Shown here in pieces: positions 4,098 to 24,000 of a stretch of DNA of 24,000 bases. The translations under genes were made by a program, and so were the position numbers. The stretch lies in assembly GCA_041389785.1 (NCBI GenBank), contig JAWKRH010000026.1, forward strand, positions 1 through 24,000, in the 5' to 3' direction. Position 1 is the stretch's first letter; each line of letters begins with the position of its first letter. The notes beneath the pieces were generated by a model, which did no database searches, had not been told where the DNA came from, and saw only the letters and a list, made by a program, of their open reading frames with translations. Source of the DNA: Polyangiaceae bacterium (lineage in GTDB: Bacteria; Myxococcota_A; Polyangia; Polyangiales; Polyangiaceae).

Positions 4098-4223
4098 TGT
4101 TGAGCGTCAGTAAAACTGACCCCCTGGCGACACTAAAACTGACCCCCCTCCCGGTGGCGGGAAGGATGGGAAAAGTCGATGGAATCAGGGCAAATTGTGG
4201 CACCTCCGGAGGCGGAGGTCGTG

Positions 4224-6223: not shown

Positions 6224-6290
6224 TCGCAGGCCTCTGGGAGGGGGTCAGTTTTACTGTCGTAAGGGGGTCAGTTCTCGCTGACGTTGCACA

Positions 6291-7360: not shown

Positions 7361-7696
7361 CTACCCGCCGACCGCCGCCGCGATCCTCGCGACCGCCACC
7401 TCGATCGGCTCCTCGCTGCCAACCCTGACGACGCGCCACCCCGCGCGCGCGAGCCGCGCATCCCGCCTCGCGTCCGCGGCGACGCGCTCCGCATGATACC
7501 CGCCATCGACCTCGACCACGAGCCGCACCGAGGACGCCGCGAAGTCGACGATGCAGCCACCGACGACGACCTGCCGCCGAAACACGACGCCGAGCTGCCG
7601 GCCGCGCAGCGCGCGCCACAGGCGCTCCTCGCTCGCCGTCGGCGCGTGACGCATGCGAGCCGCGTGTGCACGAAGGACCTGAGCGCGATCGACCAT
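7361..7696 (-). CDS. DUF559 (Vsr-like) endonuclease domain protein, the only intact copy
   Basis: 111 aa: MVDRAQVLRAHAARMRHAPTASEERLWRALRGRQLGVVFRRQVVVGGCIVDFAASSVRLVVEVDGGYHAERVAADARRDARLARAGWRVVRVGSEEPIEVAVARIAAAVGG. GGAGGTG sits 5 nt upstream of the ATG. Confidence 0.85.
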   Translation of the reverse strand: MVDRAQVLRAHAARMRHAPTASEERLWRALRGRQLGVVFRRQVVVGGCIVDFAASSVRLVVEVDGGYHAERVAADARRDARLARAGWRVVRVGSEEPIEVAVARIAAAVGG

Positions 7697-8096
7697 GAGC
7701 ACCTCCCGTCCCGGCGGGGCGCCGGGCGCAGCGACCCGAGCGCAGGCGGCGTGACGCGCGTCCACGCCTCGACGCGCGTGACGCGAGGAGCGCGGCGCGC
7801 CGCGTGCGCGTCAGAGCAAGCCCGGCGCCCCACCGGGACGGGGGCACGCCGGAGCGAGCGCGTAACGCATGTATACGCATGCTTACGCGCTCGAGGGCCT
7901 GTTCGCGATGCTCCTGCCCTCGGCCCACGCCCGCCCCCGCGCGTCTTCACCCCATGATTCAGGGCCGGCGCTAGGGCCGCGTACGGGTCTCCCCCGCGCG
8001 CCCGCAGCGCGCAGCGCGAGGACGCGCTTGGGGGAGCGGCGTGGCGAGACACGCGAGAGCTCGCGCCGCCGACCCACGCCCGTGGGGGCAACTCCA
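7697..8096. repeat. inter-cassette conserved module, variant 1 (full form with DUF559 leader)
   Basis: Contains the leader hairpin 7753-7780, the GCATGTATACGCATGC box 7867-7882, helices P-a and P-b, and the junction CGTGGGGGCAACTCCA ending at 8096. Confidence 0.85.
7753..7780 (-). promoter_or_regulatory. hairpin in DUF559 leader
   Basis: GACGCGCGTC cacgcctc GACGCGCGTG gives a 9-bp stem with an 8-nt loop, 57-84 nt upstream of the DUF559 ATG. Also present at ~2101-2135 and ~9605-9640. Absent from the two stump copies. Confidence 0.35.
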
Positions 8097-8843
8097 ATGC
8101 GGGCCCGCGTGTGGCTGCCCGAGGTGGGGGTGTTCAGCGCGATCGACGAGCTCGCGTACCACGACGCGGCACACGCTGTGGAGCTGGCCTGGGCAGAGTC
8201 CATATCGCTATGCGGACCCGAGCGGTGCTACGCGGTCCCCGGTCTGGGGCCCACCCTGACCGCCCCGCCTGTACCCGGCGGCGCCGTGTCGTTCGAGGTT
8301 GGCATCGCGACTGCTTCGAGCGCGGGGACGTTCGGGGCCTTCGCACTCGCGGCCGGCGCGATCATCACCGCCGCCGCGACGTACGATATCCTCACCCAGC
8401 TCGACCAGCTCGAGCAACCAACCGTGACCACGGACGGGGCAGCAGCCCTGCCGGCTCTGGCCGGGGTTGCCCGAGCGCCGCGGGAGGTGGCAACATCAGT
8501 GGCGGCGGACCACCGGCGCCCCCCACGTCGAGTTCTGGTGGTGGGGCGGTGCTTCGACGCAGGCTCTGATGGAGGGGACCCATTTGCGATTCTCCGCAGC
8601 CTACGAGGCCGCCAATCGCATGTTCGTACGGTGGGCTCGGAGCAACAGCTCGAGGCCATCTTCGATCAGCTGGCGTCCGGGGGCACGCCGGTCCAGAACT
8701 ATCCGGGCTGCGCGGTTCGGCTGTCGGACGGCACCTTCGTCGGAATCCGCCAGGGATCGGCGTCAGGTGGTCCAACGATCGACATCAACCGCGCAGGCAT
8801 TCGAACGAAGATTCACATCGAGCCATGGCCACCGAACCCGTGA
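8082..8843 (+). pseudogene. decayed orphan RHS tip + toxin tail (family C paralog)
   Basis: Collinear with 4019..4097 + 6296..6979 but carries several small indels (gcggtcgctac>gcggtgctac, gacgggggcagc>gacggggcagc, agcctgccacgagg>agcctacgagg). Reading needs at least 3 frame changes. Confidence 0.7.
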
Positions 8844-9192
8844 GCACCATCGTGAAGAGATCCTCAGGTACGGCGCAGACGACTGGGTAGACATGCCTGA
8901 GGTCTACGCGATCGTGCGAGAGTTCCGCAGCCGACGGCGCGACCCTTCGAGAAAGCAGGCGATCGCCGCCATATGTCGCGTCGCAGGCTCGGTCTCATGG
9001 AGGTGGGGACCGTCACGACGGCGGGCTTCGTGGGCAGCACAGAAACGGTGGCGTCGTTCGAGTCGCGCCTCCGTGCCGAGTGGGAGTGTGAGCTCTCCGC
9101 CCTTCGTCCCGGGAGAGATCTGCTGGCTTCGTCTCACTGAGCGAGGAGCCCCCATAGCTGAGAAAGCACTCGAGCGACGGCGTAGCGAGTGA
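8825..9192 (+). pseudogene. decayed immunity gene (family C paralog)
   Basis: Collinear with 6961..7332. It carries 1-nt and multi-nt deletions (cgtggaagag>cgtgaagag, gagaagctcccagaagcc>gagagttccgcagcc). Confidence 0.65.
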
Positions 9193-9220
9193 ACGCGGCT
9201 TCCGGCGCGGTGCTTTCAGG

Positions 9221-9548
9221 CTACCCGCCGCCGCCGCGATCCTCGCGACCGCCACCTCGATCGGCCTCGCCGCCAACCCTGACGACGCGCCACCCTGCGC
9301 GCGCGAGCCGCGCATCCCGCCTCGCGTCCGCGACGCGCCCGCATGATACCCGCCATCGACCTCGACCACGAGCCGCACCGAGGACGCCGCGAAGTCGACG
9401 ATGCAGCCACCGACGACGACCTGCCGCCGAAACACGACGCCGAGCTGCCGGCCGCGCAGCGCGCGCACACAGGCGCCCTCGCCTTCGCCGTCGGCGCGTG
9501 ACGCATGCGAGCCGCGTGTGCACGAAGGACCTGAGCGCGATCGACCAT
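9221..9548 (-). pseudogene. DUF559 endonuclease gene, frameshifted
   Basis: Starts MVDRAQVLRAHAARMRHAPTA, then loses frame. The FRRQVVVGGCIVDFAASSVRLVVEVDGGYHA segment is found in another frame (ORF 9013..9468). Confidence 0.7.
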
Positions 9549-9930
9549 GAGCACCTCCCGTCCCGGCGGGGCGCCGGGCGCAGCGACCCGAGCGCAGGCG
9601 GCGTGACGCGCGTCCACGCCTCGACGCGCGTGACGCGAGGAAGCGCGGCGCGCCGCGTGCGCGTCAGAGCGCGCGCCCGGCGCCCCACCGGGACGGGGGC
9701 ACGTTGAGCGCGTAACGCATGTATACGCATGCTTACGCGCTCGAGGGCCTGTTCGCGATGCTCCTGCCCTCGGCTCCACGCCCGCCCCCGCGTCTTCACC
9801 CCAAGCGATTCAGGGCCGGGTTAGGCCGCGTACGGTCTCCGCGCCCGCAGCGCGCAGCGCGAGGACGCGCTTGGGGAGCGGCGCGGCGAGACACGCGAGA
9901 GCTCGCGCCGCCGACCCACGCCCGTACCCA
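9549..9930. repeat. inter-cassette module, variant 1, decayed
   Basis: Collinear with 7697..8096 with many small deletions. The junction is reduced to cccgtacccaATG. Confidence 0.7.
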
Positions 9931-10677
9931 ATGCGGGCCCGCGTGTGGCTGCCCGAGGTGGGGGTGTTCAGCGCGATCGACGAGTTCGCGTACCACGACG
10001 CGCGGAGCACGTTAGGTTGGCTCGCATTCTCGGTCAGGTGGCGGGATCCGTACGGACGCGGTGTAGTGCCGCGAGGCCCGGACTTCCTGAGGTTGCTCGG
10101 AGACGCAGCGTTCGACAACGCAGCAGACCTTCGGGACTTCGCGGTCGCAGACTACCAGGCGGGGAACTACACCAGCGTACTTCCACGGGGACTGGCGTTC
10201 GACATGGCGCTGATCGGGGTGGCGGCGAAGGCGCTACCCGCGATCGACGACGCTGTCGCGATGGCGGAGGGCATAGCGCAGCCGCTGCAAGCTGGGGAAT
10301 AGCCCACGCGCCGGCGGCGCGCGCGGTACTGGGGCTCGACCCGCGAACAACGGGGTCTCGCCGCAATGGCAGCCTGGCGCACGACGCGCGCGTGCGGAAG
10401 ATCGCGAGCTCGATGAAGAAGAAACGGTGTAGAGGATGTTCGAGTGAACCAGCAACAGGTCGACGCGAAGGGCAACGTCGTCGGCCGGAATCGGCCAGAC
10501 GTGCAGGGGACCCACCCCGAGACAGGTCAACGCGTAAACATTGAGATCGACACGAGCGAGTCGGGCTCGCTGAGGCACCAGCGGGTGGTGCCAGCGAACG
10601 ATCCCGACGCAGTGAACACCTTCATCGGCATCGATGGCGAAGGTCGACCGACCTCGGCTACAACGAGGAGACCATGA
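9931..10677 (+). pseudogene. decayed orphan RHS tip + pre-toxin module + toxin tail (family E/G paralog)
   Basis: Collinear with 13729..14484: MRARVWLPEVGVFSAIDEFAYHDARSTL.., VRWRDPYGRGVVPRGPDFLRLLGDAAF.., and NQQQVDAKGNVVGRNRPDVQGTHPETGQRVNIEIDTSE in ORF 10444..10677. Several indels break the frame. Confidence 0.7.
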
Positions 10678-11282
10678 CGCGGCTGTCTGCGCATCTTCAT
10701 GAAATCTGCGCCTTGAGGCGGACCTGACGCGAGCGGCGGACACAAACGAAGCGTGGATGGGGATGCCGCGGACCCGTCCAGCGTTGCGGAATCGCGGAGC
10801 CGACGAGGCACTCGCGCGCCTACCTGCTGGCGTCGTTTGCGAGTCGTTACCTGCACGTCCCATGGGCAGGGTGGACACTTGTCCTCCGGAATAAGCGTGT
10901 TATCGCGGCCGACGATGTCCTCTTCTCGTTGTCCAAAGAGCTGGCGTGTCGTGGCATGTACGGATCGTGGGCGACGAACGGCTGCATGTGGCGCGTGGTG
11001 GAGAACGGGGAGCTGCGGCGTGCGGTGCACTGCTTCTTGATCTTCGGATCGGTGGGAGTTCTGGTGGGAGCTCGCTACCCGTTCGAGCATCCGAGCTCTA
11101 CGAGAAGCGACGAAAGAAGGATCGGATGCCACCTGCGGTCGTGCTCGAGTACCTCGAGCAGGTGATGGGCGTGCCCCCACCCGATCGGCGGAGCCTCCTG
11201 TCGCAGGAGACGGTGCTTCGAGCGGTCGACGCACAAGCTGCGTCGCCCGATCGAGGAGTATGCGGTCGAGGTCGACATCTAG
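10674..11282 (+). pseudogene. decayed immunity gene (family E/G paralog)
   Basis: Collinear with 14481..15101. Same ATGA start and same TAG end context, but fragments lie in three frames (for example ORFs 10929.. and 10946..). Confidence 0.65.
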
Positions 11283-11512
11283 CCAGCCGATGCCGCGGGC
11301 GGAAGCCCGCTGCACCGTTGGAAGCGCTCATCGCCAGCACGTGCTGCGGATGTACATACACGCAGTGACGCCCTGATTCAGCGGGTGAGAGAGCCGCGGA
11401 GGGGTCTCCCCCGTCCGCCTGCAGCGCGAAGCGCGAAGCCGGACTTGGGGGAGCGGCATGGCGAGACACACGCCGCATCGCGCCTGTGAGCCATGCCCGT
11501 GGGGGCAACTCC
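11283..11512. repeat. inter-cassette module, variant 2 (no DUF559)
   Basis: Contains GGATGTACATACACGCA, TGATTCAG, P-a (CTCCCCCGTCCG/CGGACttGGGGGAG), P-b (GGCATGG/CCATGCC) and the junction CGTGGGGGCAACTCCA. Identical to the 15102..15331 copy over the helices. Confidence 0.8.
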
Positions 11513-12926
11513 AGCGCTGGACCGCCTCACGAGCGTCACGCGAGAGGTGGGCGGCGCGCCCGTCGCGCTCGAGACGTACGCGTTCAACCGCCTCGGCGCC
11601 TTGAAGACCCACGCGGGCGCGCCCGTAGACGACCAGCGCCCGCGGCTCGACGGTGGAGGCCTCGCAGACGCGGCCGTGCCGGCCACGGCGGGAGGTCAAC
11701 CCATCACGGTCGACGCGGCGGGCCGCCTCACCGCGCTGCGCGGAGTGAGCCTGGGCTACTCAGGCATGGGCTACCTGATCGAGGCGGCCCCACCCATCCC
11801 CGGGGTGTCGCAGCACTTCTTGATGGATGCCTCGATGCGTCGAGTGCTCAAGGCGAGCGCCGACGGAGCAGAGGTAGAGCGGTACGCGTACGAGGGAGCG
11901 AACCGCGTGGCGGTCCTCGACCGCTTCGGAACCGTGACCGAGTCGACGCTGTTCGACGGGGTGGATCACCTGCTGCGCATGCGCAGGGGCGCGACGACCG
12001 TCTTCTTCGAGCTCGATCTCGCCGGCAACGTACGGCGACTGCGCGGTGCGGGTGGCGTGGACCTCGGCGGGTACAGGTACTCGGCGTTCGGCAGGCAGCT
12101 CGAGGACACCGCGAGCGCGAGCTTCGCGCAGCCGTTCCGGTGGAAGGGGCGGCCGCGCGATGTGCTGGGCGGGGTCGAGACGTATGACATGCGGGCGCGC
12201 GTGTGGCTGCCCGAGGTGGGGGTGTTCAGCGCGATCGACGAGCTCGCGTATCAGGACGCGCGGAGCACGCTGTGGGGTTGGCCCGGGCAGAGCCCGTATC
12301 GATATTCGGACCCGAGCGGTCGCTGCCCCGCCTGTGTCGCGGCGTTGGTGACCCTCATCGGCTTCGGCGTGGCGGCGCCGTCCGACACAGCGAGTGCTCC
12401 GGCGGACCTTCCTGGAATGATGGCGGCGGTGCCCGGGCTGGGCCAGGCGGCCGGGGCCGGGCTCCGGGGCATCGCCGGCTTCTTGGCGCCCTACGTGGAG
12501 CGGACCGCGCCAGGCCTCGCCAACGCGCTGCGAGGCGCCCCGCGCGCGAGCGCCGCTGCGGAAGCAGCTGGGGGCAGTTGCGGCGGGGGCGTGGCAGCTG
12601 GCGGGGCTGCGCCTGGAACGATCGCACAAATTGCCGAGGGCAAGAGTATCCAGGGAGGAGTGCGGGCGCTCAACGAGGCGGGCGCCTCGCAACAGGAGGC
12701 GGTGCAAGCCTTGACGCAAATCGTTGCCAACTCTGGTCGAGAGCTTATTCAGACGACGGTGCAGGGCGAGGCCGGCAGCGTAGGTCTAGCAGGTGTTCAG
12801 TTCGTCCACGGCGGAGCAACCAAGGCCGTGGTCGTTGGCGCAGACGGCGTCGCTAGGTACGGCTCTGCGACCGCCACGTATTCGGCGGACGGCTCGCTCG
12901 TGCTCTCGAACTTCGTTCCGTACTGA
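11493..12926 (+). CDS. long orphan RHS protein: ~230 aa of YD-repeat shell + core tip + toxin tail (family B/F)
   Basis: 477-aa intact ORF. YD-type repeats (VERYAYEGANRVAVLD, GGYRYSAFGRQ, FAQPFRWKGRP), the tip motif ..YDMRARVWLPEVGVFSAIDELAYQDARSTLWGWPGQSPYRYSDPSGRC, a hydrophobic linker, then a ~130-aa tail of unknown fold ending SLVLSNFVPY. The start could be ATG 11493 or the conserved GTG 11499. Confidence 0.85.
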   Translation: MPVGATPALDRLTSVTREVGGAPVALETYAFNRLGALKTHAGAPVDDQRPRLDGGGLADAAVPATAGGQPITVDAAGRLTALRGVSLGYSGMGYLIEAAPPIPGVSQHFLMDASMRRVLKASADGAEVERYAYEGANRVAVLDRFGTVTESTLFDGVDHLLRMRRGATTVFFELDLAGNVRRLRGAGGVDLGGYRYSAFGRQLEDTASASFAQPFRWKGRPRDVLGGVETYDMRARVWLPEVGVFSAIDELAYQDARSTLWGWPGQSPYRYSDPSGRCPACVAALVTLIGFGVAAPSDTASAPADLPGMMAAVPGLGQAAGAGLRGIAGFLAPYVERTAPGLANALRGAPRASAAAEAAGGSCGGGVAAGGAAPGTIAQIAEGKSIQGGVRALNEAGASQQEAVQALTQIVANSGRELIQTTVQGEAGSVGLAGVQFVHGGATKAVVVGADGVARYGSATATYSADGSLVLSNFVPY

Positions 12927-12940
12927 GTACGCTTGCCCCC

Positions 12941-13339
12941 ATGAGCATCCCCCCGAACATCTCCCATCGCATTGAGCGTGCGATCGGCATGTTGGAGCCC
13001 GAGCCGCTCGGGCACGTCAACTACGAGGGGCGGCGGCATCGAGCGCTTCCGCTCTTCGGCACGGTGGGTGAAGTTTGGCTGCTCCGGCCCGACGGCACAC
13101 TGTGGAGAGCAGACTCCGACGCGGGGCTGCCACTGGAGCCTCTCCCCGCAGAGCTGCACACGATGGCGCTCGTCGCTGGCTCGCTGCGATATCCTTGGCT
13201 TGGCGCGTTGCTGCCCGTGCGACCGCTTGGAGCCATCGAGTGCGGAACTTGCGACGGGGCGGGAAGGTTGGGCGCGACGAAGACGGTCTTCTGCAACACC
13301 TGTGGCGCGCTTGGGTGGCGCCCGCCGCCACCCGGGTGA
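12941..13339 (+). CDS. putative immunity protein with DnaJ-type zinc-finger pair
   Basis: Identical protein to 3247..3645. It follows the intact toxin by 14 nt. Confidence 0.75.
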   Translation: MSIPPNISHRIERAIGMLEPEPLGHVNYEGRRHRALPLFGTVGEVWLLRPDGTLWRADSDAGLPLEPLPAELHTMALVAGSLRYPWLGALLPVRPLGAIECGTCDGAGRLGATKTVFCNTCGALGWRPPPPG

Positions 13340-13358
13340 GCACTCCTGGTTGACGGTC

Positions 13359-13456
13359 GCGCCGCGCAGCGCGCGCCATACGCGCTCCTCGCTCGCCGTC
13401 GGCGCGTGACGCATGCGAGCCGCGTGCGCACGAAGTAGTTGAGCGCGAGCGACCAT
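13359..13456 (-). pseudogene. DUF559 endonuclease 5' stump
   Basis: Same truncated form as 3666..3761 (MVARAQLLRAHAARMRHAPTASEERVWRALRG..). Confidence 0.7.
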
Positions 13457-13728
13457 GAGCCCCACCGGGACGGGGGCACGCCGGAGCGAGCGCACACTGC
13501 ATGTGTACGCACGCTTACGCACTCGAGTGACTGTTCGCGATGCTGCCGCCCTCGGCATACGCCCGCCTCCGCGCGTCTTCACCCCATGATTCAGGGCCGG
13601 CGCTAGGGCCGGGTACGGGTCTCCCCCGCGCGCCCGCAGCGCGGAGCGCGAGGACGCGCTTGGGGGAGCGGCGTGGCGAGACACGCGAGAGCTCGCGCCG
13701 CTGACCCACGCCCGTGGGGGCAACTCCA
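13457..13728. repeat. inter-cassette conserved module, variant 1 (short form)
   Basis: P-a is 13621-13632 paired with 13655-13668. P-b is 13670-13676 paired with 13706-13712. The conserved GTG is at 13714. Confidence 0.85.
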
Positions 13729-14484
13729 ATGCGGGCCCGCGTGTGGCTGCCCGAGGTGGGGGTGTTCAGCGCGATCGACGAGCTCGCGTACCACGACGCG
13801 CGGAGCACGCTGTGGGGTTGGCCCGGGCAGAGCCCGGTCAGGTGGCGGGATCCGTACGGACGCGGTGTAGTGCCGCGAGGCCCGGACTTCCTGAGGTTGC
13901 TCGGAGACGCAGCGTTCGACAACGCAGCAGACCTTCGGGACTTCGCGGTCGCAGACTACCAGGCGGGGAACTACACCAGCGCGTACTTCCACGGGGGACT
14001 GGCGTTCGACATGGCGCTGATCGGGGTGGCGGCGAAGGCGCTACCCGCGATCGTCGACGCCGTCGCGATGGCGGAGGGCGGCGGGCGCAGCTGCAAGTTG
14101 GGGAACAGCCCACGCGCCGGCGGCGCGCGCGGTACTGGGGCTCGACCCGCGAACAACGGGGTCTCGCCGCCGCACGGCAGCCCGGCGCACGACGCGCGCG
14201 TGCGGAAGATCGCGAGCTCGATGAAGAAGAACAAGTGGGAGGATGTTCGAGTGAACCAGCAACAGGTCGACGCGAAGGGCAACGTCGTCGGCCGGAATCG
14301 GCCAGACGTGCAGGGGACCCACCCCGAGACAGGTCAACGCGTAAACATTGAGATCGACACGAGCGAGTCGGGCTCGCTGAGGCACCAGCGGGTGGTGCCA
14401 GCGAACGATCCCGACGCAGTGAACACCTTCATCGGCATCGATGGCGAAGGTCGACCGACCTCGGCTACAACGAGGAGACCATGA
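13714..14484 (+). CDS. short orphan RHS tip + pre-toxin module + toxin tail (family E/G; possible PD-(D/E)xK-like nuclease)
   Basis: Intact 256-aa ORF from the conserved GTG (MGATPMRARVW..; alternative ATG 13729). Contains VRWRDPYGRG and the shared module PRGPDFLRLLGDAAF..GGGRSCK. The tail reads HDARVRKIASSMKK..GRNRPDVQG..GQRVNIEIDTSE. The fold assignment is weak. Confidence 0.75.
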   Translation: MGATPMRARVWLPEVGVFSAIDELAYHDARSTLWGWPGQSPVRWRDPYGRGVVPRGPDFLRLLGDAAFDNAADLRDFAVADYQAGNYTSAYFHGGLAFDMALIGVAAKALPAIVDAVAMAEGGGRSCKLGNSPRAGGARGTGARPANNGVSPPHGSPAHDARVRKIASSMKKNKWEDVRVNQQQVDAKGNVVGRNRPDVQGTHPETGQRVNIEIDTSESGSLRHQRVVPANDPDAVNTFIGIDGEGRPTSATTRRP

Positions 14485-15101
14485 CGCGGCTGTCTGCGCA
14501 TCTTCATGAAATCTGCGCCTTTGAGGCGGACCTGACGCGAGCGGCGGACACAAACGAAGCGTGGATGGGACGTTACGGACCCGTCCAGCGTTGGCGGAAT
14601 CGCGGAGCCGACGAGGCACTCGCGCGCCTACTTCCGCTGGCGTCGTTTGCGAGTCGTTACCTGCACGTCCCATGGGCAGGGTGGACACTTGTCCTCCGGA
14701 ATAAGCGTGTTATCGCGGCCGACGATGTCCTCTTCTCGTTGTCCAAAGAGCTGGCGTGTCGTGGCATGTACGGATCGTGGGCGACGAACGGCTGCATGTG
14801 GCGCGTGGTGGAGAACGGGGAGCTGCGGCGTGCGGTGCACTGCTTCTTGGATTCGGATCGGTGGGAGTTCTACGAGGAGGGAGCTCGCTACCCGTTCGAG
14901 CATCCGGAGCTCTACGAGAAGCGACGAAAGAAGGATCGGATGCCACCTGCGGTCGTGCTCGAGTACCTCGAGCAGGTGATGGGCGTGCCGTTCCCACCCG
15001 ACTGGCGGAGCCTCCTGTCGCAGGAGACGGTGTGCCTCGAGCGGTCGACGCACAAGCTGCGTCGCCCGATCGAGGAGTATGCGGTCGAGGTCGACATCTA
15101 G
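14481..15101 (+). CDS. putative immunity protein (family E/G)
   Basis: 206-aa ORF with ATGA overlap on the toxin stop. No recognisable domain. Confidence 0.72.
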   Translation: MTRLSAHLHEICAFEADLTRAADTNEAWMGRYGPVQRWRNRGADEALARLLPLASFASRYLHVPWAGWTLVLRNKRVIAADDVLFSLSKELACRGMYGSWATNGCMWRVVENGELRRAVHCFLDSDRWEFYEEGARYPFEHPELYEKRRKKDRMPPAVVLEYLEQVMGVPFPPDWRSLLSQETVCLERSTHKLRRPIEEYAVEVDI

Positions 15102-15331
15102 CCAGCCGATGCCGCGGGCGGAAGCCCGCTGCACCGTTGGAAGCGCTCATCGCCAGCACGTGCTGCGGATGTACATACACGCAGTGACGCCCTGATTCAG
15201 CGGGTGAGAGAGCCGCGGAGGGGTCTCCCCCGTCCGCCTGCAGCGCGAAGCGCGAAGCCGGACTTGGGGGAGCGGCATGGCGAGACACACGCCGCATCGC
15301 GCCTGTGAGCCATGCCCGTGGGGGCAACTCC
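15102..15331. repeat. inter-cassette module, variant 2 (no DUF559)
   Basis: P-a is 15225-15236 paired with 15259-15272. P-b is 15274-15280 paired with 15310-15316 and contains ATG 15312. The conserved GTG is at 15318. Confidence 0.8.
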
Positions 15332-16712
15332 AGCGCTGGACCGCCTCACGAGCGTCACGCGAGAGGTGGGCGGCGCGCCCGTCGCGCTCGAGACGTACGC
15401 GTTCAACAGCCTCGGCGCCTTGAAGACCCACGCGGGCGCGCCCGTAGACGACCAGCGCCCGCGCCTCGACGGCGGAGGCCTCGCAGACGCGGCCGTGCCG
15501 GCCACGGCGGGAGGTCAACCCATCACGCTCGACGCGGCGGGCCGCCTCACCGCGCTGCGCGGAGTGAGCCTGGGCTACTCAGGCATGGGCTACCTGATCG
15601 AGGCGGCCCCACCCATCCCCGGGGTGTCGCAGCACTTCTTGATGGATGCCTCGATGCGTCGAGTGCTCAAGGCGAGCGCCGACGGAGCAGAGGTAGAGCG
15701 GTACGCGTACGAGGGAGCGAACCGCGTGGCGGTCCTCGACCGCTTCGGAACCGTGACCGAGTCGACGCTGTTCGACGGGGTGGATCACCCCATCCGTCTG
15801 AAGCGAGGCGGGACGACGGTCTTCTTGGAGCTAGACCTCGCCGGCCACGTGAGGCGACTGCGCGCGCCAGGCGGCGGAGACCTGGGGGGATACCGCTACA
15901 GCGCGTTCGGCAAGCAGCTCGAGGACACAGCGAGCGCAAGCTTCACGCAGCCGTACCGGTGGAAGGGACGCCCCCGCGACGTGCTGGGCGGGGTCGAGAC
16001 GTATGACATGCGAGCCCGCGTGTGGCTGCCCGAGGTGGGGGTGTTCAGCGCGATCGACGAGCTCGCGTACCACGACGCGCGGAGCACGCTGTGGGGTTGG
16101 CCGGGGCAGAGCCCGGTGCGGTGGAGTGATCCGTACGGGCGAGGTGTCACGCCGAGGGGCCCCGACTTTCTCGGGCTGCTCGGAGACGCCGCTTTCCAGA
16201 ACGCAGCGGACCTGCGGGACTTCGCGGTCGCAGACTACAACGCGGGTAACTACACGAGCGCGTACTTCCACGGGGGTCTGGCGTTCGACATGGCGCTGAT
16301 CGGGGTGGCGGCGAAGGCGCTACCCGCGATCGTCGACGCCGTCGCGATGACCGAGGGCGGCGGGCGCAGCTGCAAGACCGGCGCGAGGGGGTCCTCAGGC
16401 CGGGGCCAAGCAACTGCGACTGGCGGAGGGGAGACCAAGCAGACGGGTTCCTATACCAACACGCATGCCAGCGGCAAGACCTATTCGGGCAAGGGTTCCC
16501 GAACGCGCTCTCAGCAGTCCGGTCGGCGTCAGGCTCGCGCCAACGACGATCCCCACACGGCCACAGACTGGACTCCGGCAGAGAACACGCGGGAGGCATT
16601 CAAGCAGGAATCTCGACGGCTAGATGGTCAAGGTGGGGTAGAAAGCCCGTCGAACTATAACGAGGTCGAATCGCCCGGGAAGCGGTTCCGGATCGAGGAT
16701 GGTGAGCTGTGA
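15312..16712 (+). CDS. long orphan RHS protein: YD-repeat shell + core tip + pre-toxin module + GIY-YIG-like toxin tail (family H)
   Basis: 466-aa intact ORF. The N-terminal 160 aa are nearly identical to 11493..12926. Contains the tip ..VRWSDPYGRG and the shared pre-toxin module up to GGGRSCK. In the tail, GSYTNTHASGKTYSGKGS gives Y-x9-Y-x-G, followed by RTRSQQSGRR; the E of FKQESRRLD and the first N of SNYN lie 15 residues apart. This is GIY-YIG-like spacing. Confidence 0.85.
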   Translation: MPVGATPALDRLTSVTREVGGAPVALETYAFNSLGALKTHAGAPVDDQRPRLDGGGLADAAVPATAGGQPITLDAAGRLTALRGVSLGYSGMGYLIEAAPPIPGVSQHFLMDASMRRVLKASADGAEVERYAYEGANRVAVLDRFGTVTESTLFDGVDHPIRLKRGGTTVFLELDLAGHVRRLRAPGGGDLGGYRYSAFGKQLEDTASASFTQPYRWKGRPRDVLGGVETYDMRARVWLPEVGVFSAIDELAYHDARSTLWGWPGQSPVRWSDPYGRGVTPRGPDFLGLLGDAAFQNAADLRDFAVADYNAGNYTSAYFHGGLAFDMALIGVAAKALPAIVDAVAMTEGGGRSCKTGARGSSGRGQATATGGGETKQTGSYTNTHASGKTYSGKGSRTRSQQSGRRQARANDDPHTATDWTPAENTREAFKQESRRLDGQGGVESPSNYNEVESPGKRFRIEDGEL

Positions 16713-17134: not shown

Positions 17135-17482
17135 GTGAAGAATCAGCATGCGAACGCGACGCGTGTGGCACTTGAGCGGATCGCTCAAGATGGTTCGGAT
17201 CTGGGTCGGCCGCTGAAGACGGACTTCTTCGTTGCTGTGCCCGATGAGAGCAGCGGACGAGTCATGGCTGCTCGCGCCTCGGATCTTGGATTCGATACGA
17301 GTGTGGAGGAGGACGCCGAGACGGGAGACTGGACCTGCTACTGCACCAAAGTCTTCATTCCAGCGTATCAGGCGGTGGTCGCGATTGAGTCGAAGTTGGA
17401 CTTGCTTGCCCGTGAGATAGGGGGCTATGCCGACGGGTTTGGCACTTTCGGAAACGCAGACCTGGCAAATGACGAACGGTGA
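17135..17482 (+). CDS. RraB-like (ribonuclease E inhibitor RraB family) protein
   Basis: 115 aa. GGAG lies 7 nt upstream of the GTG. The pattern LERIAQDGSDLGRPLKTDFFV......ARASDLGF......ETGDW.C......P....V.AIESKLDLLAREIGGYADGFGT matches the RraB layout (..DGSD...P..IEH.F.., ..LGY.., ..YDGWGT). Confidence 0.65.
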   Translation: MKNQHANATRVALERIAQDGSDLGRPLKTDFFVAVPDESSGRVMAARASDLGFDTSVEEDAETGDWTCYCTKVFIPAYQAVVAIESKLDLLAREIGGYADGFGTFGNADLANDER

Positions 17483-17879
17483 GGGCCTGTCGTCGTGGTT
17501 CAGCGGCTCTTGCCCGTCGCCTTCCGGCTCTTCGCCGGATCCGGGGCCCGTGCGATCACGCGGCGGCAGGTAGCAGGGTGGGCGGCGTGATGCCGAGGGC
17601 GGGGAATCGCCGTATGCTGTCGTGGTCCATCGACCTTTCCCACTCGTTCTCGTCGAAATTCCTCTGGCCTCCACGATGCATGTAGCTCGGACGCGGCCGA
17701 GGCCGGCGCCAGCACTCGTGGCGAGAGCGCGATTCCGCGCGCCGGGGTCGCGGCAGCTCGGGAGCATCGGACAGGGTGCCGCCGCAGCGGCGCCGGCCGC
17801 CGGGGCACTGGGGTCGGGGGGACTCGGGGGTGCGGCCGCCAGCAGTCAGTCCTGTGCGGGGCGAAGCAGTCAGGCTGGC

Positions 17880-18195
17880 GCGAGCGCGAGCGGAGTGCTC
17901 AACTTCACCTCGAGAAGCCTACAAAAGGGTTCGACAAGCACGGCGCGGACTTCGGGCTTTCCGGAAACTGGAACCCCGGCAGAGCCGCAGACTTCAGCAG
18001 GGCGCGCAATCAGCACGTCAACAGCCCCTCCGTGACTGTGGTGCAAGGACCAATCGTGGCAGCCCCGCCACGCACCACTTCGATCCGTCTAGCGGTTTGA
18101 ACGTGGTTGCCAACCAGAGCGGCAACTACGTGACGGGCTTCCGCCTGGGAGTCGATCAGATGCAGAACCTACTTCGATCAGGAGCTCTCCAGTGA
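17880..18195 (+). pseudogene. frameshifted remnant of a non-RHS polymorphic toxin tail (possible colicin-D/BECR-type RNase)
   Basis: Three frames must be read together. Frame 0: ..GAAASSQSCAG..ASASGVLNFTSRSLQKG. Frame 2: GFDKHGADFGLSGNWNPGRAADFSRARNQHVNSPSVTVVQG. Frame 1: HHFDPSSGLNVVANQSGNYVTGFRLGVDQMQNLLRSGALQ*. The KHG.(D/E)FG ... FDP..G..VV....G...T.F pattern resembles RNase toxin tails from memory; this is unverified. Confidence 0.4.
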
Positions 18196-18434: not shown

Positions 18435-18516
18435 CTTGGAGCTCGGCGACGGGCAGATTTGGCTCGCCCCTGAGCCGCGCCGCCGAGAACATCGCAGGGG
18501 AGCCTGCGCGCCGAGC

Positions 18517-18795
18517 GCCGCCGCGCTCCTCGCGACCGCCACCTCCAATGCGAGCCCGCGTGTGGCTGCCCGACCGGCGATTTGGTGAAGACTGGGATCA
18601 GCGGCGGCACCCGAACCGCAGCGGGTGACTCGAAGGCTCCAAGCGGCCGCACGGGCAGCAACGCGCTTGGGTGGCGCCTTCGGACGGCACCGTCGTCGGC
18701 ATCCGCCAGGGATCGGCGTCAGGTGGTTCAACGATCGACATCAACCGCGCAGGCATTCGAACGAAGGTTCACATCCACCCATGGCCACCGATCCC
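18517..18795. other. mosaic of six short fragments from other cassettes
   Basis: In order: the DUF559 3' end (matches 7374-7402); the RHS tip start CCAATGCGAGCCCGCGTGTGGCTGCCCGA; a URI-like toxin core TGDLVKTGISGGTRTAAGDS (compare 727-790); 32 nt equal to the reverse complement of 3509-3540; 17 nt equal to 3611-3627; and the last ~115 nt of toxin family C (compare 6858-6965). Confidence 0.7.
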
Positions 18796-19152
18796 CTGAG
18801 CACCATCGTCGAAGAGATCCTCGTACACGGCGCGGACGACTGGGTACACATGCCCGAGGTCCACGCGATCGTGCGCGAGACGGTCCCAGAAGCCGACGCC
18901 GCGACCCTTCGAGAGCAGGCGATCGCCGCCATATGTCATGTCGTGAGGCTCGGTCTCATGGAGGTGGGCACCGTCACGACGGCGGGCTTCGTGGGCAGCA
19001 CAGAAACGTTGGCGTCGTTCGAGTCGCGCCTCCGTGCCGAGTGGAGTGTGAGCTCTCCTCCCTTCGTTCCGGGAGAGATCTGCTGGCTTCGTCTCACCGC
19101 ACGAGGGGCGCGTCTCGCGGACCAGGCGCTCGAGCGCCGGGGCAGTGAGTGA
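18781..19152 (+). CDS. orphan immunity protein (family C paralog), intact
   Basis: 123 aa, MATDPLSTIVEEILVHGADDWVHMPEVHAIVRE.., highly similar to 6961..7332. The cognate toxin upstream is reduced to a 3' stub. Confidence 0.75.
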   Translation: MATDPLSTIVEEILVHGADDWVHMPEVHAIVRETVPEADAATLREQAIAAICHVVRLGLMEVGTVTTAGFVGSTETLASFESRLRAEWSVSSPPFVPGEICWLRLTARGARLADQALERRGSE

Positions 19153-19337
19153 GCCGGGCTCTGTTCGACATTCTAGATGCGAGCGTCAGCGAAGAGTGGA
19201 GAGTCCGCCCTCATCGAGACGGACTTTCGATGCACGCGATCGAGCTCGACGACGAATTCTTCTGCGATGATGTTCAGGAGCGGCGTGAGGGGGCGTTGGA
19301 GCGATACCGTCGAATGAAGGCACGTCTTCGCGTGTAG
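19149..19337 (+). CDS. hypothetical small protein
   Basis: 62-aa ORF with GTGA overlap on the upstream stop. There is no other support. Confidence 0.3.
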   Translation: MSRALFDILDASVSEEWRVRPHRDGLSMHAIELDDEFFCDDVQERREGALERYRRMKARLRV

Positions 19338-19363
19338 GCCGCGCATGGGCATAGGGGTGGGCG

Positions 19364-19984
19364 ATGCTGGAGGCCGACATCTGGAACGAGATCGACGCGA
19401 TGCGAGACGAGGAGGACCCCGCTCTCCGCGGCGCGCGCTGCTCAGACCTCGCCCAACGGCTCCGAGGAGTCCGCCCTGCCTCCGCGCAGAGCCTGTATGC
19501 GCTGGGCTACGTGCTCTACCACCACCCGAGCCGAGTACGAGACGCGGAGCTCCAACAAGAGACCGACGACGTCCTTCGACGCGCGCTGGAGCTCGAGCCC
19601 GGCGACGCCTGGTCCCACATGTATCGTGGGTACAATGCGTACGACGTGGGAAGGTACCGCGAGGCGCGAGCCTTCTTCGAAGCGGCAGACGCGGCGCAAC
19701 TCACGACCAACTTCGCCCTCAATCGCGAGGAGATGATGTTGTGCATAGACATGCGAACCAAGGGCATTGCCAAGTGCATGCCGTCGCTTGACGCGTACGT
19801 CTCGAGCGCAGAGCGGTACGAGGAGCCAGACGTCTTCCCGATGACCCTCGCGCGGACGCTGGAGGAGCTGCATGCGGAGCTTCTTCGGTTGCCTCGTCGC
19901 GATCGGACTCACGCGAAGTGGCTCGCCTCGCGACTCGACAAGGCAGGCGGCTCGAACGACTGGTTCACCGCGCTCGTTCCTTGA
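19364..19984 (+). CDS. hypothetical helical-repeat (TPR-like) protein, possible orphan immunity
   Basis: 206-aa ORF with a purine-rich tract upstream of the ATG. TPR-like segments (SLYALGYVLYHH.., AWSHMYRGYNAYDVGRYREARAFFEAA). Confidence 0.55.
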   Translation: MLEADIWNEIDAMRDEEDPALRGARCSDLAQRLRGVRPASAQSLYALGYVLYHHPSRVRDAELQQETDDVLRRALELEPGDAWSHMYRGYNAYDVGRYREARAFFEAADAAQLTTNFALNREEMMLCIDMRTKGIAKCMPSLDAYVSSAERYEEPDVFPMTLARTLEELHAELLRLPRRDRTHAKWLASRLDKAGGSNDWFTALVP

Positions 19985-20345
19985 ACGCATTGTTCGGCCC
20001 AAGGAGTCTCCGGAAGAGGCCACTCGCGTGCGGTGCCGCCGGACGCGTCGCCGACGGCCACGCCGTCCTCGCTGCCCGGTCTACCTGCCCCGTCGAGCGC
20101 AGCACGCCCACCGGAGGCGCGATGGGACGGCTACACCCTGCGATTCGGTTGAGTCTTACGTCGGTCTGCCTCGTAATCTCCTGCTCCAGCGCACCGCCCT
20201 CGTCATCGACTCGAGCGTCGCGAAGCTCCCGATGTAGGATCCGCCCGACGTCGTCTGTGGGAATCGCCTCCGCGCCTGGATGGACTGCTGCCGAGTGATC
20301 CCACGCGGCGGTTAGCTGCCAGGCGCTTCGCACCAGCTGATACTG

Positions 20346-21335
20346 ATGAAGACCGCAAGATCGAGCACCGACCGAGATCCTGCAGCGCAGGAGTCGCCGG
20401 GAAGTGTGGCGGCCTCGAGGTCGACCCACCTCAGGAGGGCGCTCGCCTGCACACTGGTGCTGATCAGCCCCGGACTCACGTACGCTCTTGCTCGTCCGTA
20501 CCCACCCGCGAGCATGGACGGCTCGACGGCGTTCTCCTTTCTCGTTCTCGGTGTGTGGAGTCTCGCCGCTTCCCTTGCGATGTGGTGGGCACGAACGACG
20601 CTCGAGGACGCGAAGCTCGCGCGCGTGCTCGCCTTGAATGTCGTCCTTCTCGATGTCATGCACGCGGGTCTAGTCGCTGTCGTTGTCCCGCGCTCTCTTC
20701 CAGGCGCTGCGGTGGCGTTCGCGACCCACGCCGCGATCTCCGCGCTCCTGGTCCTCCCCACTCCTCAGGTGCCGTCGCCTCGACCAGCGGTAGGCGCCGC
20801 CGTCCATGTCGTCATCGGGTCGGCGCTCTTTCTCGTGCTGCTCGTCGTCGCCTACCAGGGGTGGCGTGCGCTTCGCAAACGGGCCGCTCTGGTCGAAACC
20901 ATCCACATGGTTGGTGAGATTCGCAACGCGCAAGAGGTCTTCCGGTCAGAGACAGGAGGCTACGCGAATGTCTCCGCTGCTTTGGCTGCCAACCAAAGCA
21001 CGAACCACTTCGCGCTCTATCCTCAGGCTCCCCTGCGTCCCGGCCGGCATGCGTTTTCTTGGGGTGTTGATTGTCCCAAGTCGGCGTGCAGGCTCAGTTG
21101 GCTGGTGATTCCCGTCCTCGCCGACAGAGTGGTCTACGGATATTCGACAGTCGCCGGTGTGGCGGCGGCACCGCCGCCGGCAACGATCGTGGTCGATGGA
21201 AGGGAGTTGACCTGGTCGCCACCTGGGCAAGAGTGGTTTCTCGTGACTGCTGTCGGTGACCCTATGGGGGACGGTTCATATACGACAGTCGTTGGCGGCT
21301 CGCTCTGGCCGGAGCTCAGGATCGACAACCCGTGA
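20346..21335 (+). CDS. hypothetical multi-pass membrane protein with pilin-like C-terminal domain
   Basis: 329 aa with several hydrophobic helices (LVLISPGL.., FSFLVLGVWSLAASLAMWW, LALNVVLLDVMHAGLVAVVV, HVVIGSALFLVLLVVAY). These are followed by ..RKRAALVETIHMVGEIRNAQEVFRSETGGYANVS, resembling the helix after a type IV pilin TM segment. The start is uncertain. Confidence 0.5.
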   Translation: MKTARSSTDRDPAAQESPGSVAASRSTHLRRALACTLVLISPGLTYALARPYPPASMDGSTAFSFLVLGVWSLAASLAMWWARTTLEDAKLARVLALNVVLLDVMHAGLVAVVVPRSLPGAAVAFATHAAISALLVLPTPQVPSPRPAVGAAVHVVIGSALFLVLLVVAYQGWRALRKRAALVETIHMVGEIRNAQEVFRSETGGYANVSAALAANQSTNHFALYPQAPLRPGRHAFSWGVDCPKSACRLSWLVIPVLADRVVYGYSTVAGVAAAPPPATIVVDGRELTWSPPGQEWFLVTAVGDPMGDGSYTTVVGGSLWPELRIDNP

Positions 21336-21569
21336 CCGAAGGTGGAAACGTGCGTGGGTTCCACCACACACCTCGCCTTGGGCGCCGGACATCCCCGATG
21401 TACGATCCGAGGACGTGGCGCCGTCGAATCCCGCCCCCGAGCCGCGAACCTTTCCATATCGCGTACTGCGGCGCGCCACGACCTTGACTCATAGAGGTAG
21501 GCACGAGCTCGCTCTCGCGCTGCTCGAACGGGCGTTCGGGCGAGTCCCCAACGCGGGGAGGCGGGGGCA

Positions 21570-22268
21570 TTGAAGGACGGCGTGCGGGCAAATCGGATCC
21601 GCGAGGCGGTCGCGCAGGCCCGCAAGCTGCTCGGCGACGACCGAATCGCGCAGGCGTGCGACGTCGCGTTCAGGGCGCTGGAGTCTCTCGCAGACGAGCA
21701 GGGCTTCGACGCGGCGATGCGGCGCGAGCTCCTGTCGGCGTTGAGCTTGGCATTCGACGGTGGCCCGACGATGTGGGGGGAGCCATATCCGAGAGTGTCG
21801 AGAGACGTGGTCATCTCGTATGAAGCTCAGCGCGGCGGCGTTCCTCTGGCGGACGCCTTCGTGCGAGCGTCCGACGCATTGCCCGAGCAGGGCTCGCGCG
21901 CCGTCGCCTATCGCTACCTGTGTGCCGCGGGAACCATCTATTCGGCGTTCGGCGCGGCGGGCGCGCGGCGCCGTGAGGTCTTGAGGAAGCTATGCACGAC
22001 CGCCATTGGCTTGGGGAACCTCGACGACGCGGTGACAGCTTCGAACGCTTGGCTCGCGCTGACGCGTCCCGATGACCTGTCGGTAGAGTCGCTCCAGTAC
22101 ACGGTCGGAGTGGCCTTGTTCGACGCAGGCCGGCTGCCCCAGGCGCTCGAACGATTCGAGGACGTGCTGTCGAGGCGGCGCGCGATGGACGCGTCGAACC
22201 TGCGAAGCGCATGGGTAGACGAAGCCGAAGCGTGGGTCACGAGGGCGCGCCTCGCGACGCGCCGGTGA
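21570..22268 (+). CDS. hypothetical helical-repeat protein
   Basis: 232-aa ORF. TTG start with GGAGG 8 nt upstream, in a TTGA overlap with the stop of a short upstream ORF (..HELALALLERAFG..). It may be one frameshifted gene. The last codons run into a 41-bp module fragment. Confidence 0.5.
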   Translation: MKDGVRANRIREAVAQARKLLGDDRIAQACDVAFRALESLADEQGFDAAMRRELLSALSLAFDGGPTMWGEPYPRVSRDVVISYEAQRGGVPLADAFVRASDALPEQGSRAVAYRYLCAAGTIYSAFGAAGARRREVLRKLCTTAIGLGNLDDAVTASNAWLALTRPDDLSVESLQYTVGVALFDAGRLPQALERFEDVLSRRRAMDASNLRSAWVDEAEAWVTRARLATRR

Positions 22269-22269
22269 G

Positions 22270-22310
22270 CGCGAGAGCTCGCGCCGCTGACCCACGCCCG
22301 TGGGGGCAAC
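22270..22310. repeat. isolated 41-bp copy of the 3' end of the inter-cassette module (island boundary)
   Basis: CGCGAGAGCTCGCGCCGCTGACCCACGCCCGTGGGGGCAAC is identical to 13684-13724. Homology stops after GGGGCAAC, followed by AAAAGCTGG. Confidence 0.8.
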
Positions 22311-22346
22311 AAAAGCTGGCCCCACCCCTCATGATCCTGCATACTG

Positions 22347-22366
22347 ATAGTTGGAGCTCAAACTAT
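22347..22366. promoter_or_regulatory. AT-rich near-perfect 20-bp palindrome upstream of the infA-like gene (candidate operator)
   Basis: ATAGTTgGAGCTCaAACTAT (18/20 symmetric), 23 nt upstream of the TTG start. Confidence 0.35.
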
Positions 22367-22388
22367 TCACCCCGAGCCGGAGCAGTCA

Positions 22389-22697
22389 TTGCGCAAGAAA
22401 AAGAAGAAGAAGACCCCCCATGCCTTTCAGTCCCCCGAGCAGAGCGAGCCGCGCCAGGACCACCTGGAGCTCGAGGGCACCGTCGCCGATGTCTATGCCG
22501 GCGGCCACTTCACCGTCACGCTCGACGCCGGGCCGACGATCAAAGCCGTCGTCAGCGGCCGCATGCGCCGCTATCGCGTGCGCGTCCTGCTCGGTGATCG
22601 CGTGAAGGTGGCGCTCTCGCCCTACGATCTCACGCACGGCCTCATCACGTACCGCACGCTGAATCGCACGCCACAGGGCGTACGTCGCGCGGCCTGA
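22389..22697 (+). CDS. infA: translation initiation factor IF-1 homolog with Lys-rich N-terminal extension
   Basis: The core LELEGTVADVYAGGHFTVTLDAGPTIKAVVSGRMRRYRVRVLLGDRVKVALSPYDLTHGLITYR aligns with the IF-1 S1/OB domain (IEMQGTV...F.V.L.NGH.V.AHISGKMRKN.IRIL.GD.V.VELTPYDL..GRI..R). The only in-frame start is TTG 22389, with GGAG 6 nt upstream, giving the MRKKKKKKTPH.. extension. Confidence 0.78.
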   Translation: MRKKKKKKTPHAFQSPEQSEPRQDHLELEGTVADVYAGGHFTVTLDAGPTIKAVVSGRMRRYRVRVLLGDRVKVALSPYDLTHGLITYRTLNRTPQGVRRAA

Positions 22698-22775
22698 CGG
22701 CGGCCGACCGTCGGCTCCTCGGGGGGGGAGCCCGCGGGACAACGAGAGCGATCGCCCGGCGGGCGCGGCGCTCGG

Positions 22776-23999
<1,224 letters not shown>

Positions 24000-24000
24000 G

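Follow-up and report, generated by a model that had tools for sequence, protein, structure and literature searches.

The locus described here raises the question of why several truncated RHS toxin genes in one array should begin at the same short sequence. The window (the whole stretch of DNA that was analysed, positions 1 to 24,000 of contig JAWKRH010000026.1 from a Polyangiaceae metagenome-assembled genome, or MAG) carries, in order, the C-terminus of a main RHS gene, an array of truncated rhs-CT genes, decayed remnants, and the core genes infA and a sigma-54 activator. The arrangement is that of an RHS orphan toxin/immunity array: a main rhs gene with a YD-repeat core is followed by truncated rhs-CT genes (orphans) that keep a piece of the core, each with a small immunity-like open reading frame (ORF) behind it, often overlapping. 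The orphans have in common either MRARVW...DPxGR or 225 codons of core, and their homologues are annotated as RHS repeat-associated proteins. At the upstream edge of this core sequence stands a 16-mer, CGTGGGGGCAACTCCA, present in six exact copies, all on the + strand (starting at 2477, 4017, 8081, 11498, 13713 and 15317). Dinucleotide shuffles lead one to expect 0.02 copies, and none of 100 shuffles reaches six.

Four copies continue into ATGCGGGCC (MRARVW; ATGCGG) and two, those at 11498 and 15317, into GCGCTGGACCGC (ALDRLTSV; GCGCTGG), so the initial annotation was right that identical 16 nt meet differing downstream contexts. Its distances hold as well: MRARVW starts about 43 aa before DPSGR (given as ~45 aa), and ALDRL precedes MRARVW by 225 codons (15333 to 16008; given as ~230 aa). 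It had further stated that homology stops at 22310 beside core DNA, and this is what we find: positions 22295-22310 read CGTGGGGGCAAC, followed by AAAAGCTGG and then by the infA upstream region, with homology ending after GGGGCAAC.

Our reading is that a cassette-boundary element with a defined 3' end lies at these sites, and that new rhs joints arose at this end repeatedly, in-frame ones being kept and then multiplied by recombination. We put the probability of this at roughly one in two. With the same even confidence, we regard the 16-mer as the 3' terminal block of a discrete structured spacer of ~105-150 nt (112 nt in the window) at the boundaries of cassettes in RHS loci of Polyangiaceae-type bacteria. 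In the 5' part of this spacer, a C-run, CTCCCCC, pairs with a first G-run, TTGGGGGAG, as the outer helix of a domain that we call P1, and this helix encloses a stem of 4-6 bp and a hairpin, both covarying, with a conserved CGCGCA/GAGCA internal loop between them. The 3' part comprises a second GC-rich hairpin (P2, often of the same design), a second G-run, GTGGGGGC, and a 7-nt tail. The copies in the window are listed below, with bit scores from the covariance model R1 that is described after them.

2381-2492, + strand: element copy, short type, joined to ATGCGG (MRARVW); 71.1 bits.
3922-4032, + strand: element copy, short type, lacking 1 nt of the C-run; 60.7 bits; the orphan is broken by IS21 64 nt further on.
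7985-8096, + strand: element copy, short type; 73.7 bits.
9833-9930, + strand: decayed seventh copy, with deletions in P1 and 8 nt of the terminal block deleted (CGTA, gap of 8, CCCAATG); 38.7 bits.
11402-11513, + strand: element copy, long type, identical to 15221-15332 (recent duplication).
13617-13728, + strand: element copy, short type; 71.1 bits.
15221-15332, + strand: element copy, long type, with P1 at 15221-15276, P2 as GGCATGG...CCATGCC, second G-run and tail; 74.5 bits.
15317-15332, + strand: the flagged 16-mer, being the last base of the linker between P2 and the G-run plus the 15-nt terminal block (GTGGGGGC and the 7-nt tail AACTCCA).
22270-22310, + strand: truncated element that closes the array distally, consisting of GTGGGGGCAAC preceded by the 3' half of P2; 41 nt, 97.6% identical to 8052-8092.

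It should be noted that the six copies of the 16-mer are not six independent events, because segments of the array are themselves duplicated: 9682-12296 matches 13459-16115 at 94%, 2493-4096 matches 12189-13793 at 98.8%, 6297-8168 matches 8162-10002 at 95%, and 11213-11512 is 100% identical to 15032-15331. What the window holds is two independent junctions, multiplied by segmental duplication, and one truncated copy. The truncated element is flanked by the stop of a TPR gene on one side and by the infA upstream region on the other. The suggestion that cassettes move 'module-first' is not established, as this partial element abutting core DNA fits an 'element-last' order at least as well.

The evidence for structure is covariation. 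The long and short variants of the module are 78% identical over ~160 nt, and the differences between them are compensatory (GCGCG/CGCGC versus GTCCG/CGGAC; GGCGTGG/CCACGCC versus GGCATGG/CCATGCC). Ten more variants of the same architecture came from a pattern scan of metagenomes and from the DNA around homologous orphans, and minimum free energy folding of 12 distinct elements recovered that architecture in most of them. Model R1 was limited to the P1 domain because whole-element MAFFT alignments misplace the variable hairpins; it was trained on six well-aligned sequences, with the remaining sequences serving as held-out tests. In the training set, 98.2% of cells are paired and 9 of 19 pairs have changed on both sides, which none of 500 shuffles matches. 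Across 17 distinct sequences, held-out ones included, 97.1% of cells are paired and 11 of 19 pairs are compensatory (48 cells), compared with 38-57% paired in slid controls. Held-out matches were obtained in related loci L009 (52.7 bits), L020, L008, L023 and L024 (twice), and the only matches in the window are the seven boundary copies, all on the + strand, with no other significant match in 179 kb. One element is found at each cassette boundary, without exception on the coding strand.

Compensatory changes in P1 are almost purely Watson-Crick (2 of 313 cells in the 17-sequence set are G.U), and the plus and minus strands of the element fold with equal stability. Because wobble pairs are nearly absent and both strands are equally stable, we lean towards a hairpin or inverted repeat at the level of DNA rather than RNA. 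The 16-mer taken alone can form a hairpin (U-GGGG/GCAA/CUCC-A), but this is weak (-1.6 kcal/mol, z +0.54) and not better than shuffles. Since it is also lost in several lineages, we speak of a 'G-run box plus tail' and not of a conserved helix.

The second line of evidence is the junction itself. At every junction for which DNA is available, RHS homology sets in at the same distance, exactly 15 nt past the G of GTGGGGGC, and in frame (for L016 the position is ambiguous by 3 nt); in the flagged copy, RHS sequence (GCGCTGGAC, ALDRL) begins at 15333. The same end is joined to at least 10 different positions of the RHS core across lineages. Junctions are given below as element tail / first rhs bases.

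Window, short type: ...AACTCCA / ATGCGG
Window, long type: ...AACTCCA / GCGCTG
L006: CACCTCCA / GCGCTG
L023: GTGGGGGCCCATCGA / GCGCTG
L020: GTGGGGGCATCCCGG / CATCCG
L018: GTGGGGGCTCATAAG / CACCCG
L022: GAGGGGGCTCATCAT / CTCGCC
L021: GTTGGGGCAGCCTCT / TGGCTC
L024, two junctions: GTGGGGGCATCAAAA / CAGCAATTC and / CAGTACGAA

The same is seen at the protein level, where overhangs of the form (V/M/E)GA plus 2 aa precede RHS sequence at no fewer than 10 core positions, and where tblastn alignments to full-length genes start at residue 6 of VGAxx/ in nine junctions. In four cases (window, L020, L021, L024b), comparison with the main gene of the orphan itself places the junction to the exact nucleotide. 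Uninterrupted genes read ...TAC GAC (YD) before ALDRL and ACG TAT GAC before MRARVW (the latter in the main gene, 2-982), and alignment of full-length RHS proteins (1955-3220 aa) to the long orphan does not start until residue 7-9. Judging by these relatives, which carry YD before ALDRL and align only from that point, GATP is not RHS sequence; the possibility that GATP-ALDRL is simply contiguous in full-length RHS genes can be set aside.

The last 6-7 nt of the terminal block vary between lineages (TCAAAA, TCCCGG, GCCTCT, CATAAG) and its length is constant. On this comparison, the sequence of the 16-mer is lineage-specific, and what is conserved is the length and position of the end. Within a lineage, one tail is joined to two core positions, both in the window and in L024 (junctions a and b), and because an identical tail meets two core positions, we take the tail to belong to the element and the joint to lie at its end. 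Most junctions lack microhomology between the tail and the natural upstream sequence, although the two in L024 share CAG, and we recognised no composite overhangs of the type expected from deletions that start inside rhs. The initial annotation had set a fixed boundary against random recombination. The spacer side is indeed fixed, at 15 nt, whereas the rhs side is ragged, which turns that framing round yet bears out a non-random process at this end; random homologous displacement would not produce a fixed +15 end at so many core positions.

Several observations were made at or near these junctions. An Asp codon (GAC/GAT) precedes four of ~10 junction positions (YD/ALDRL, VD/HPL, LD/LAGN, YD/MRARVW; sites 1634, 1779, 1797 and 1864 in the numbering of the L020 main gene), for which chance gives ~0.5%, a figure that is post hoc and not conclusive. 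Other overhangs, ...RRLASDAG/FYLFDG (proteins P0052, P0057, P0061, P0063, P0071, P0181) and ...TASGPCS/YLFDG (P0060, P0065, P0076, P0184), join the same core position as VGAAS/WLYDG, and probably represent other spacer families and/or a hot spot on the rhs side. The 'MGATP' of P0026 (L005) was judged coincidental, as all four wobble positions differ and no element lies upstream. In L009 (3823-4100), the element lies ~50 nt downstream of an unrelated gene (with an AgmX/PglI-like C-terminus) and is followed by an in-frame, TIR-like C-terminal fragment, so the joining may not be limited to RHS.

All joints fall at codon boundaries, in frame with a GTG in the terminal block. The RHS genes needed to follow this are listed here.

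2-982, + strand: C-terminal end of the main RHS gene, with a Tox-URI2 tip; the 5' part is cut by the start of the window and contig.
11493-12926, + strand: second long RHS orphan, with the same core fragment and another toxin tip.
13714-14484, + strand: short RHS orphan, VGATP / MRARVW...; its stop is overlapped by an immunity ORF, 14481-15101.
15312-16712, + strand: long RHS orphan, MPVGATP / ALDRL..., with 225 core codons and then a toxin tip; an overlapping immunity-like ORF starts at 16709.

In the short type, the joint lies at the natural ATG of MRARVW, and an in-frame TGA stands four codons before the GTG in three of the four copies. The joint of the long type has no ATG of its own; an ATG is gained two codons before the GTG (at 15312), from the covarying P2 pair GGCATGG/CCATGCC. 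Immunity ORFs overlap the orphan stops, and omega between the two long core fragments is 0.26. Expression of orphan rhs from internal starts has been documented in Salmonella (PMC7043789). We infer that in-frame joints were kept because with them the element enables translation of the displaced fragment, which in turn carries translation on to the immunity gene.

If this reading is correct, the process might run as follows. Cassettes would be handled as units composed of core fragment, toxin tip, immunity gene, in some cases a gene for a DUF559 endonuclease (see below), and element. The element would supply a defined DNA end by being cut or nicked a set distance away from the second hairpin and G-run, with the recurrently linked DUF559 as the candidate enzyme, and this end would be joined without homology to broken or copied rhs core. 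Selection would retain joints that are in frame, the terminal block giving a start codon (the GTG, the ATG of the long type, or the natural ATG of MRARVW), so that the displaced toxin fragment and the overlapping immunity gene remain translated. Later homologous recombination between repeated core ends, and between elements, would duplicate and shuffle cassettes into the array that is observed. The junctions would then point to site-specific joining; the end might be made by DUF559 or another nuclease or nickase, by a recombinase that has escaped notice or by stalled replication, or it might derive from the end of an RNA.

DUF559 is put forward on account of the following genes.

1773-2090, - strand: DUF559 copy upstream of the element at 2381.
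7361-7765, - strand: intact gene for a DUF559 (Vsr-like PD-(D/E)XK) endonuclease, divergent from the element; its start is ~220 nt from P1; Pfam PF04480, E=2.6e-25.
9221-9620, - strand: frameshifted DUF559 copy upstream of the decayed element.

Membership in DUF559 (PF04480) is found by profile, with further matches to NF007294 (E=3.4e-19, below the equivalog cut-off) and PDB 3HRL (E=1.2e-12), and catalysis is predicted. The gene stands beside an element in five loci from three lineages (the window, L019, L002, L020, L024), always divergent and 220-290 nt from P1. Between lineages the proteins are 57-61% identical, with omega 0.48. In two of these loci (L020, 9630-9800; L024, 1990-2140), the stretch that separates the element from the DUF559 start holds a long inverted repeat, its arms ~27 nt each (GACCTCCCGGGCCCGAGGCGAGTGGCCGGGCC...), and L021, which has no DUF559 gene, holds only the left arm (2850-2885).

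The initial annotation had proposed a search for a linked recombinase or integrase. There is none in the 24-kb window, where Pfam scans return only IS21 IstA/IstB and DUF559, and no recombinase was found in the 4 kb beyond the window that can be seen in L019, or in the gene tables of related loci L016-L025. The one nuclease gene linked to the element is that of DUF559, which lies within the spacer.

Two independent group II introns are inserted inside the element, just past hairpin and G-run (L023, 481-2425; L007, 1-613), one at the first G-run and the other at the second (Rfam RF00029/RF02001). Their reverse transcriptases consist of RVT_1 and GIIM without an endonuclease domain. Group II introns that lack the endonuclease target terminator or attC-like stem-loops, and the insertion sites fit a stem-loop that forms in vivo.

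A more tentative extension of our reading, which we consider possible but doubtful, is that the element and its divergent DUF559 gene together form a recombinase-independent cassette-capture system for polymorphic toxin tips, in which the nuclease, or some other factor, would recognise hairpin and G-run and make an end exactly 7 nt past GGGGGC. If so, the end would be ligated to rhs DNA (occasionally to other DNA, e.g., TIR) to give a self-starting in-frame orphan that is re-armed later by homologous recombination.

A number of observations weigh against a defined, actively made end, and against the role of DUF559 in particular. The DUF559 gene is absent from the long-type spacers of the window, from the second element of L024, and from L016, L018 and L022, and in L002 a decayed half element lies on the far side of this gene; DUF559 may thus be an independent selfish lodger beside the element and not its engine. 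Neither activity of an enzyme nor an excised circle or free end has been seen. Ascertainment accounts for part of the in-frame rule, since most foreign junctions were found via predicted proteins; junctions ascertained from DNA number ~4 (two in the window, the TIR-like fragment of L009, and L024a), all of them in frame. Where different lineages share a junction position (ALDRL, HPL, LAGN), the joining may have happened only once, long ago, so that independent joinings number ~10, fewer than the loci. The end is also not without exceptions: besides the 3-nt ambiguity in L016, the element at 22310 is shorter by 5 nt, the weak hairpin of the 16-mer is lost in several lineages, as noted above, and elements in L008 and L012 are followed by no ORF. 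Finally, sampling is thin, as a strict pattern gave 5 true matches in 241 million metagenome records.

The alternative that survives best, which we still consider unlikely, is that the element is an ordinary conserved intergenic spacer (terminator, promoter or leader of rhs-immunity operons) that tandem duplication and homologous recombination copy along with its neighbours, its boundary having been inherited from a few old illegitimate fusions, so that no dedicated way of joining would be required. Three features of the data would follow directly: the six window copies collapse to two junctions amplified by duplication, the ALDRL junction is common by descent across lineages (the orphans are 58-72% identical, with drifting tails), and arrays are reshuffled by homologous exchange at the core end. 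It also agrees with the published model of orphan formation and recombination (PMC3967940). Such a spacer accounts poorly for at least 10 core positions each joined at the identical element nucleotide, for an identical tail at two positions within single lineages, and for the lack of recognisable composite overhangs. Moreover, a consensus scan for terminators and sigma-70 promoters found neither at the elements, the flanks of which are without T-runs.

Less probable again is an element that acts as RNA, either as a 3' stabiliser or terminator of the immunity mRNA or as a 5' leader that controls translation of the orphan, the end being an RNA end and the cassettes possibly reverse-transcribed. 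That every copy lies on the coding strand, and that a start codon is selected at the element end, would be expected of such an element; pairing of C-run with G-run and of CUCC with GGGG could mask a Shine-Dalgarno-like GGGGGAG; on the + strand alone, the terminal hairpin, though weak, carries a GNRA loop and a G.U pair, and reverse transcriptases (those of the group II introns) occur in two related loci. Against it, the almost exclusively Watson-Crick covariation is unusual for RNA, both strands fold equally well and the terminal hairpin is not conserved; there is no U-tract, and cmscan of the whole window at E<=1 matched no Rfam family to the element.

Very improbable, finally, is integron- or rAID-like recombination at an attC-type site by a tyrosine recombinase encoded outside the window: a structure that is conserved while its sequence varies, a size of 100-150 nt, one copy per cassette with the last adjoining core DNA, and insertion of endonuclease-less group II introns (as IIC introns insert into attC sites and terminators) all suit it, but the searches above found no recombinase, there are no RYYYAAC/GTTRRRY core sites, and the rhs partner sites have no common motif (ATGCGG, GCGCTG, CATCCG, CTCGCC, TGGCTC, CAGTAC), where tyrosine recombinases normally need overlap identity.

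Returning to the cassette-boundary element with a defined end, its relation to known systems can be outlined. As in the RHS orphan arrays of Salmonella, E. coli and others (PMC3967940, PMC3150448), rhs-CT/immunity pairs in which part of the core survives stand behind a main rhs gene, toxin tips are exchanged by homologous recombination within the shared core, and arrays differ between close strains. In contrast, no enterobacterial array has been described with a conserved structured element that has a nucleotide-precise end at the 5' edge of the orphan. Enterobacterial orphans 'usually lack translation initiation signals' (PMC3967940), whereas the element in the window precedes each orphan, reaching 15 nt past GTGGGGGC and providing a start codon. 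The rAID-1 arrays of Bacteroidales (10.1101/471110) resemble this locus in that orphan immunity genes and toxin remnants are separated by repetitive intergenic sequences, and they are thought to reflect active acquisition of cassettes. Unlike those arrays, which are marked by a 5' XerD-family recombinase and co-directional low-GC immunity genes, the window has no recombinase, its G+C is 68%, it comes from Myxococcota (a Polyangiaceae MAG) and not from Bacteroidales, the element differs in sequence and structure, and the linked gene is DUF559.

The likeness to integron attC sites is one in kind only: both are cassette-terminal, keep structure while sequence varies (here an imperfect hairpin conserved by covariation), and are targets of group II introns. 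attC sites measure 57-141 nt and are recognised as folded single strands. No IntI, attI or R''/R' core sites were found for the element, whose 12 variants all start with CTCCCCC... and finish with ...GTGGGGGC plus 7 nt, and it is joined to arbitrary in-frame gene positions, not to a second att site. A hairpin with a precise end at a fixed distance, next to flanking DNA of any sequence, and another boundary that varies is also seen in the IS200/IS605 right end, IS91/ISCR, the Helitron 3' end and relaxase nic sites, but no gene for an HUH transposase, Rep or relaxase lies nearby, and the bases that flank the junctions share no motif and no target tetranucleotide, Asp codons standing before only 4 of ~10 junctions. 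In contrast to repetitive extragenic palindromes or bacterial interspersed mosaic elements with their RAYT transposases, copies occur only at cassette boundaries in 179 kb, and there is no IS200-like gene. The stem-loops likewise differ from intrinsic terminators, having no T/U run beside them.

Our literature search found no description of the element sequence, of DUF559 with myxobacteria or Rhs, or of myxobacterial REP elements. Orphan toxin/immunity cassettes behind rhs, cdiA and genes like them have so far been explained by homologous recombination plus an illegitimate join that was itself unexplained. The element offers a testable handle on that join, being structured, with a nucleotide-precise end, present in several lineages, adjoined by a candidate nuclease and found in natural strain variants of the locus. 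If an enzyme makes the end, the system would amount to an integron-like platform for acquisition assembled from different parts, and DUF559, a widespread orphan domain, would gain a function. If none does, the element would still be an uncatalogued structured DNA or RNA motif that gives displaced toxin fragments their start codons, a point relevant to whether orphan cassettes are expressed.

Recombination in the array can be followed between strains. Contig L019, from a sister strain, is 99.98% identical to window positions 18680-24000 (5.3 kb), yet has a different array upstream. The remnant at 18501-18573 of the window is a deleted version of the L019 arrangement, and it includes the following feature.

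18540-18573, + strand: deletion remnant, in which CTCCAATGCGAGCC... follows directly on the 3' end of DUF559; L019 has the intact version.

Arrays are reshuffled by homologous exchange at the conserved core end. A scan of a genome collection with a module-internal 22-mer returned one related contig, L002 (CALFYL010000256.1). This belongs to a MAG labelled 'uncultured Planctomycetia' and is 96-100% identical to parts of the window, which looks like a binning or labelling conflict.

Some other candidates were weighed and dropped. A scan of viral contigs with the conserved sub-motif gave one match, judged to be chance. In L013 (~8893-8952, - strand), a tRNA-Ser with acceptor GGGGGAG and variable arm GTGGGGGCAACTCCAC fits both anchors of the element pattern; we treat the resemblance as a probable coincidence and have set aside an origin from a tRNA or att site. 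A kink-turn reading of the CGCGCA/GAGCA loop, and retron, CRISPR, diversity-generating retroelement and oriT readings, were considered from general knowledge, and no supporting gene or motif was seen. By eye, the variable tail shows no guide-like complementarity to other parts of the element. ARAGORN reports neither tRNA nor tmRNA in the window, and a weak Rfam match to flg-Rhizobiales (6182-6317, 23 bits, E=0.64) that covers the IS21 right end and its junction with the orphan was judged to be chance.

The remaining features of the array are as follows. An IS21-family insertion sequence at 4099-6290 (IstA 4179-5447, IstB 5444-6223), with ACCAA at both ends, interrupts a short orphan 64 nt past its element, and the orphan continues from 6297. 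Decayed toxin and immunity remnants span 16.7 to 22.3 kb; in this distal part, an RraB-like ORF lies at 17135-17479 and a decayed Colicin-D-like toxin remnant at 17776-18192, the intact version of which is P0104, from a related metagenome.

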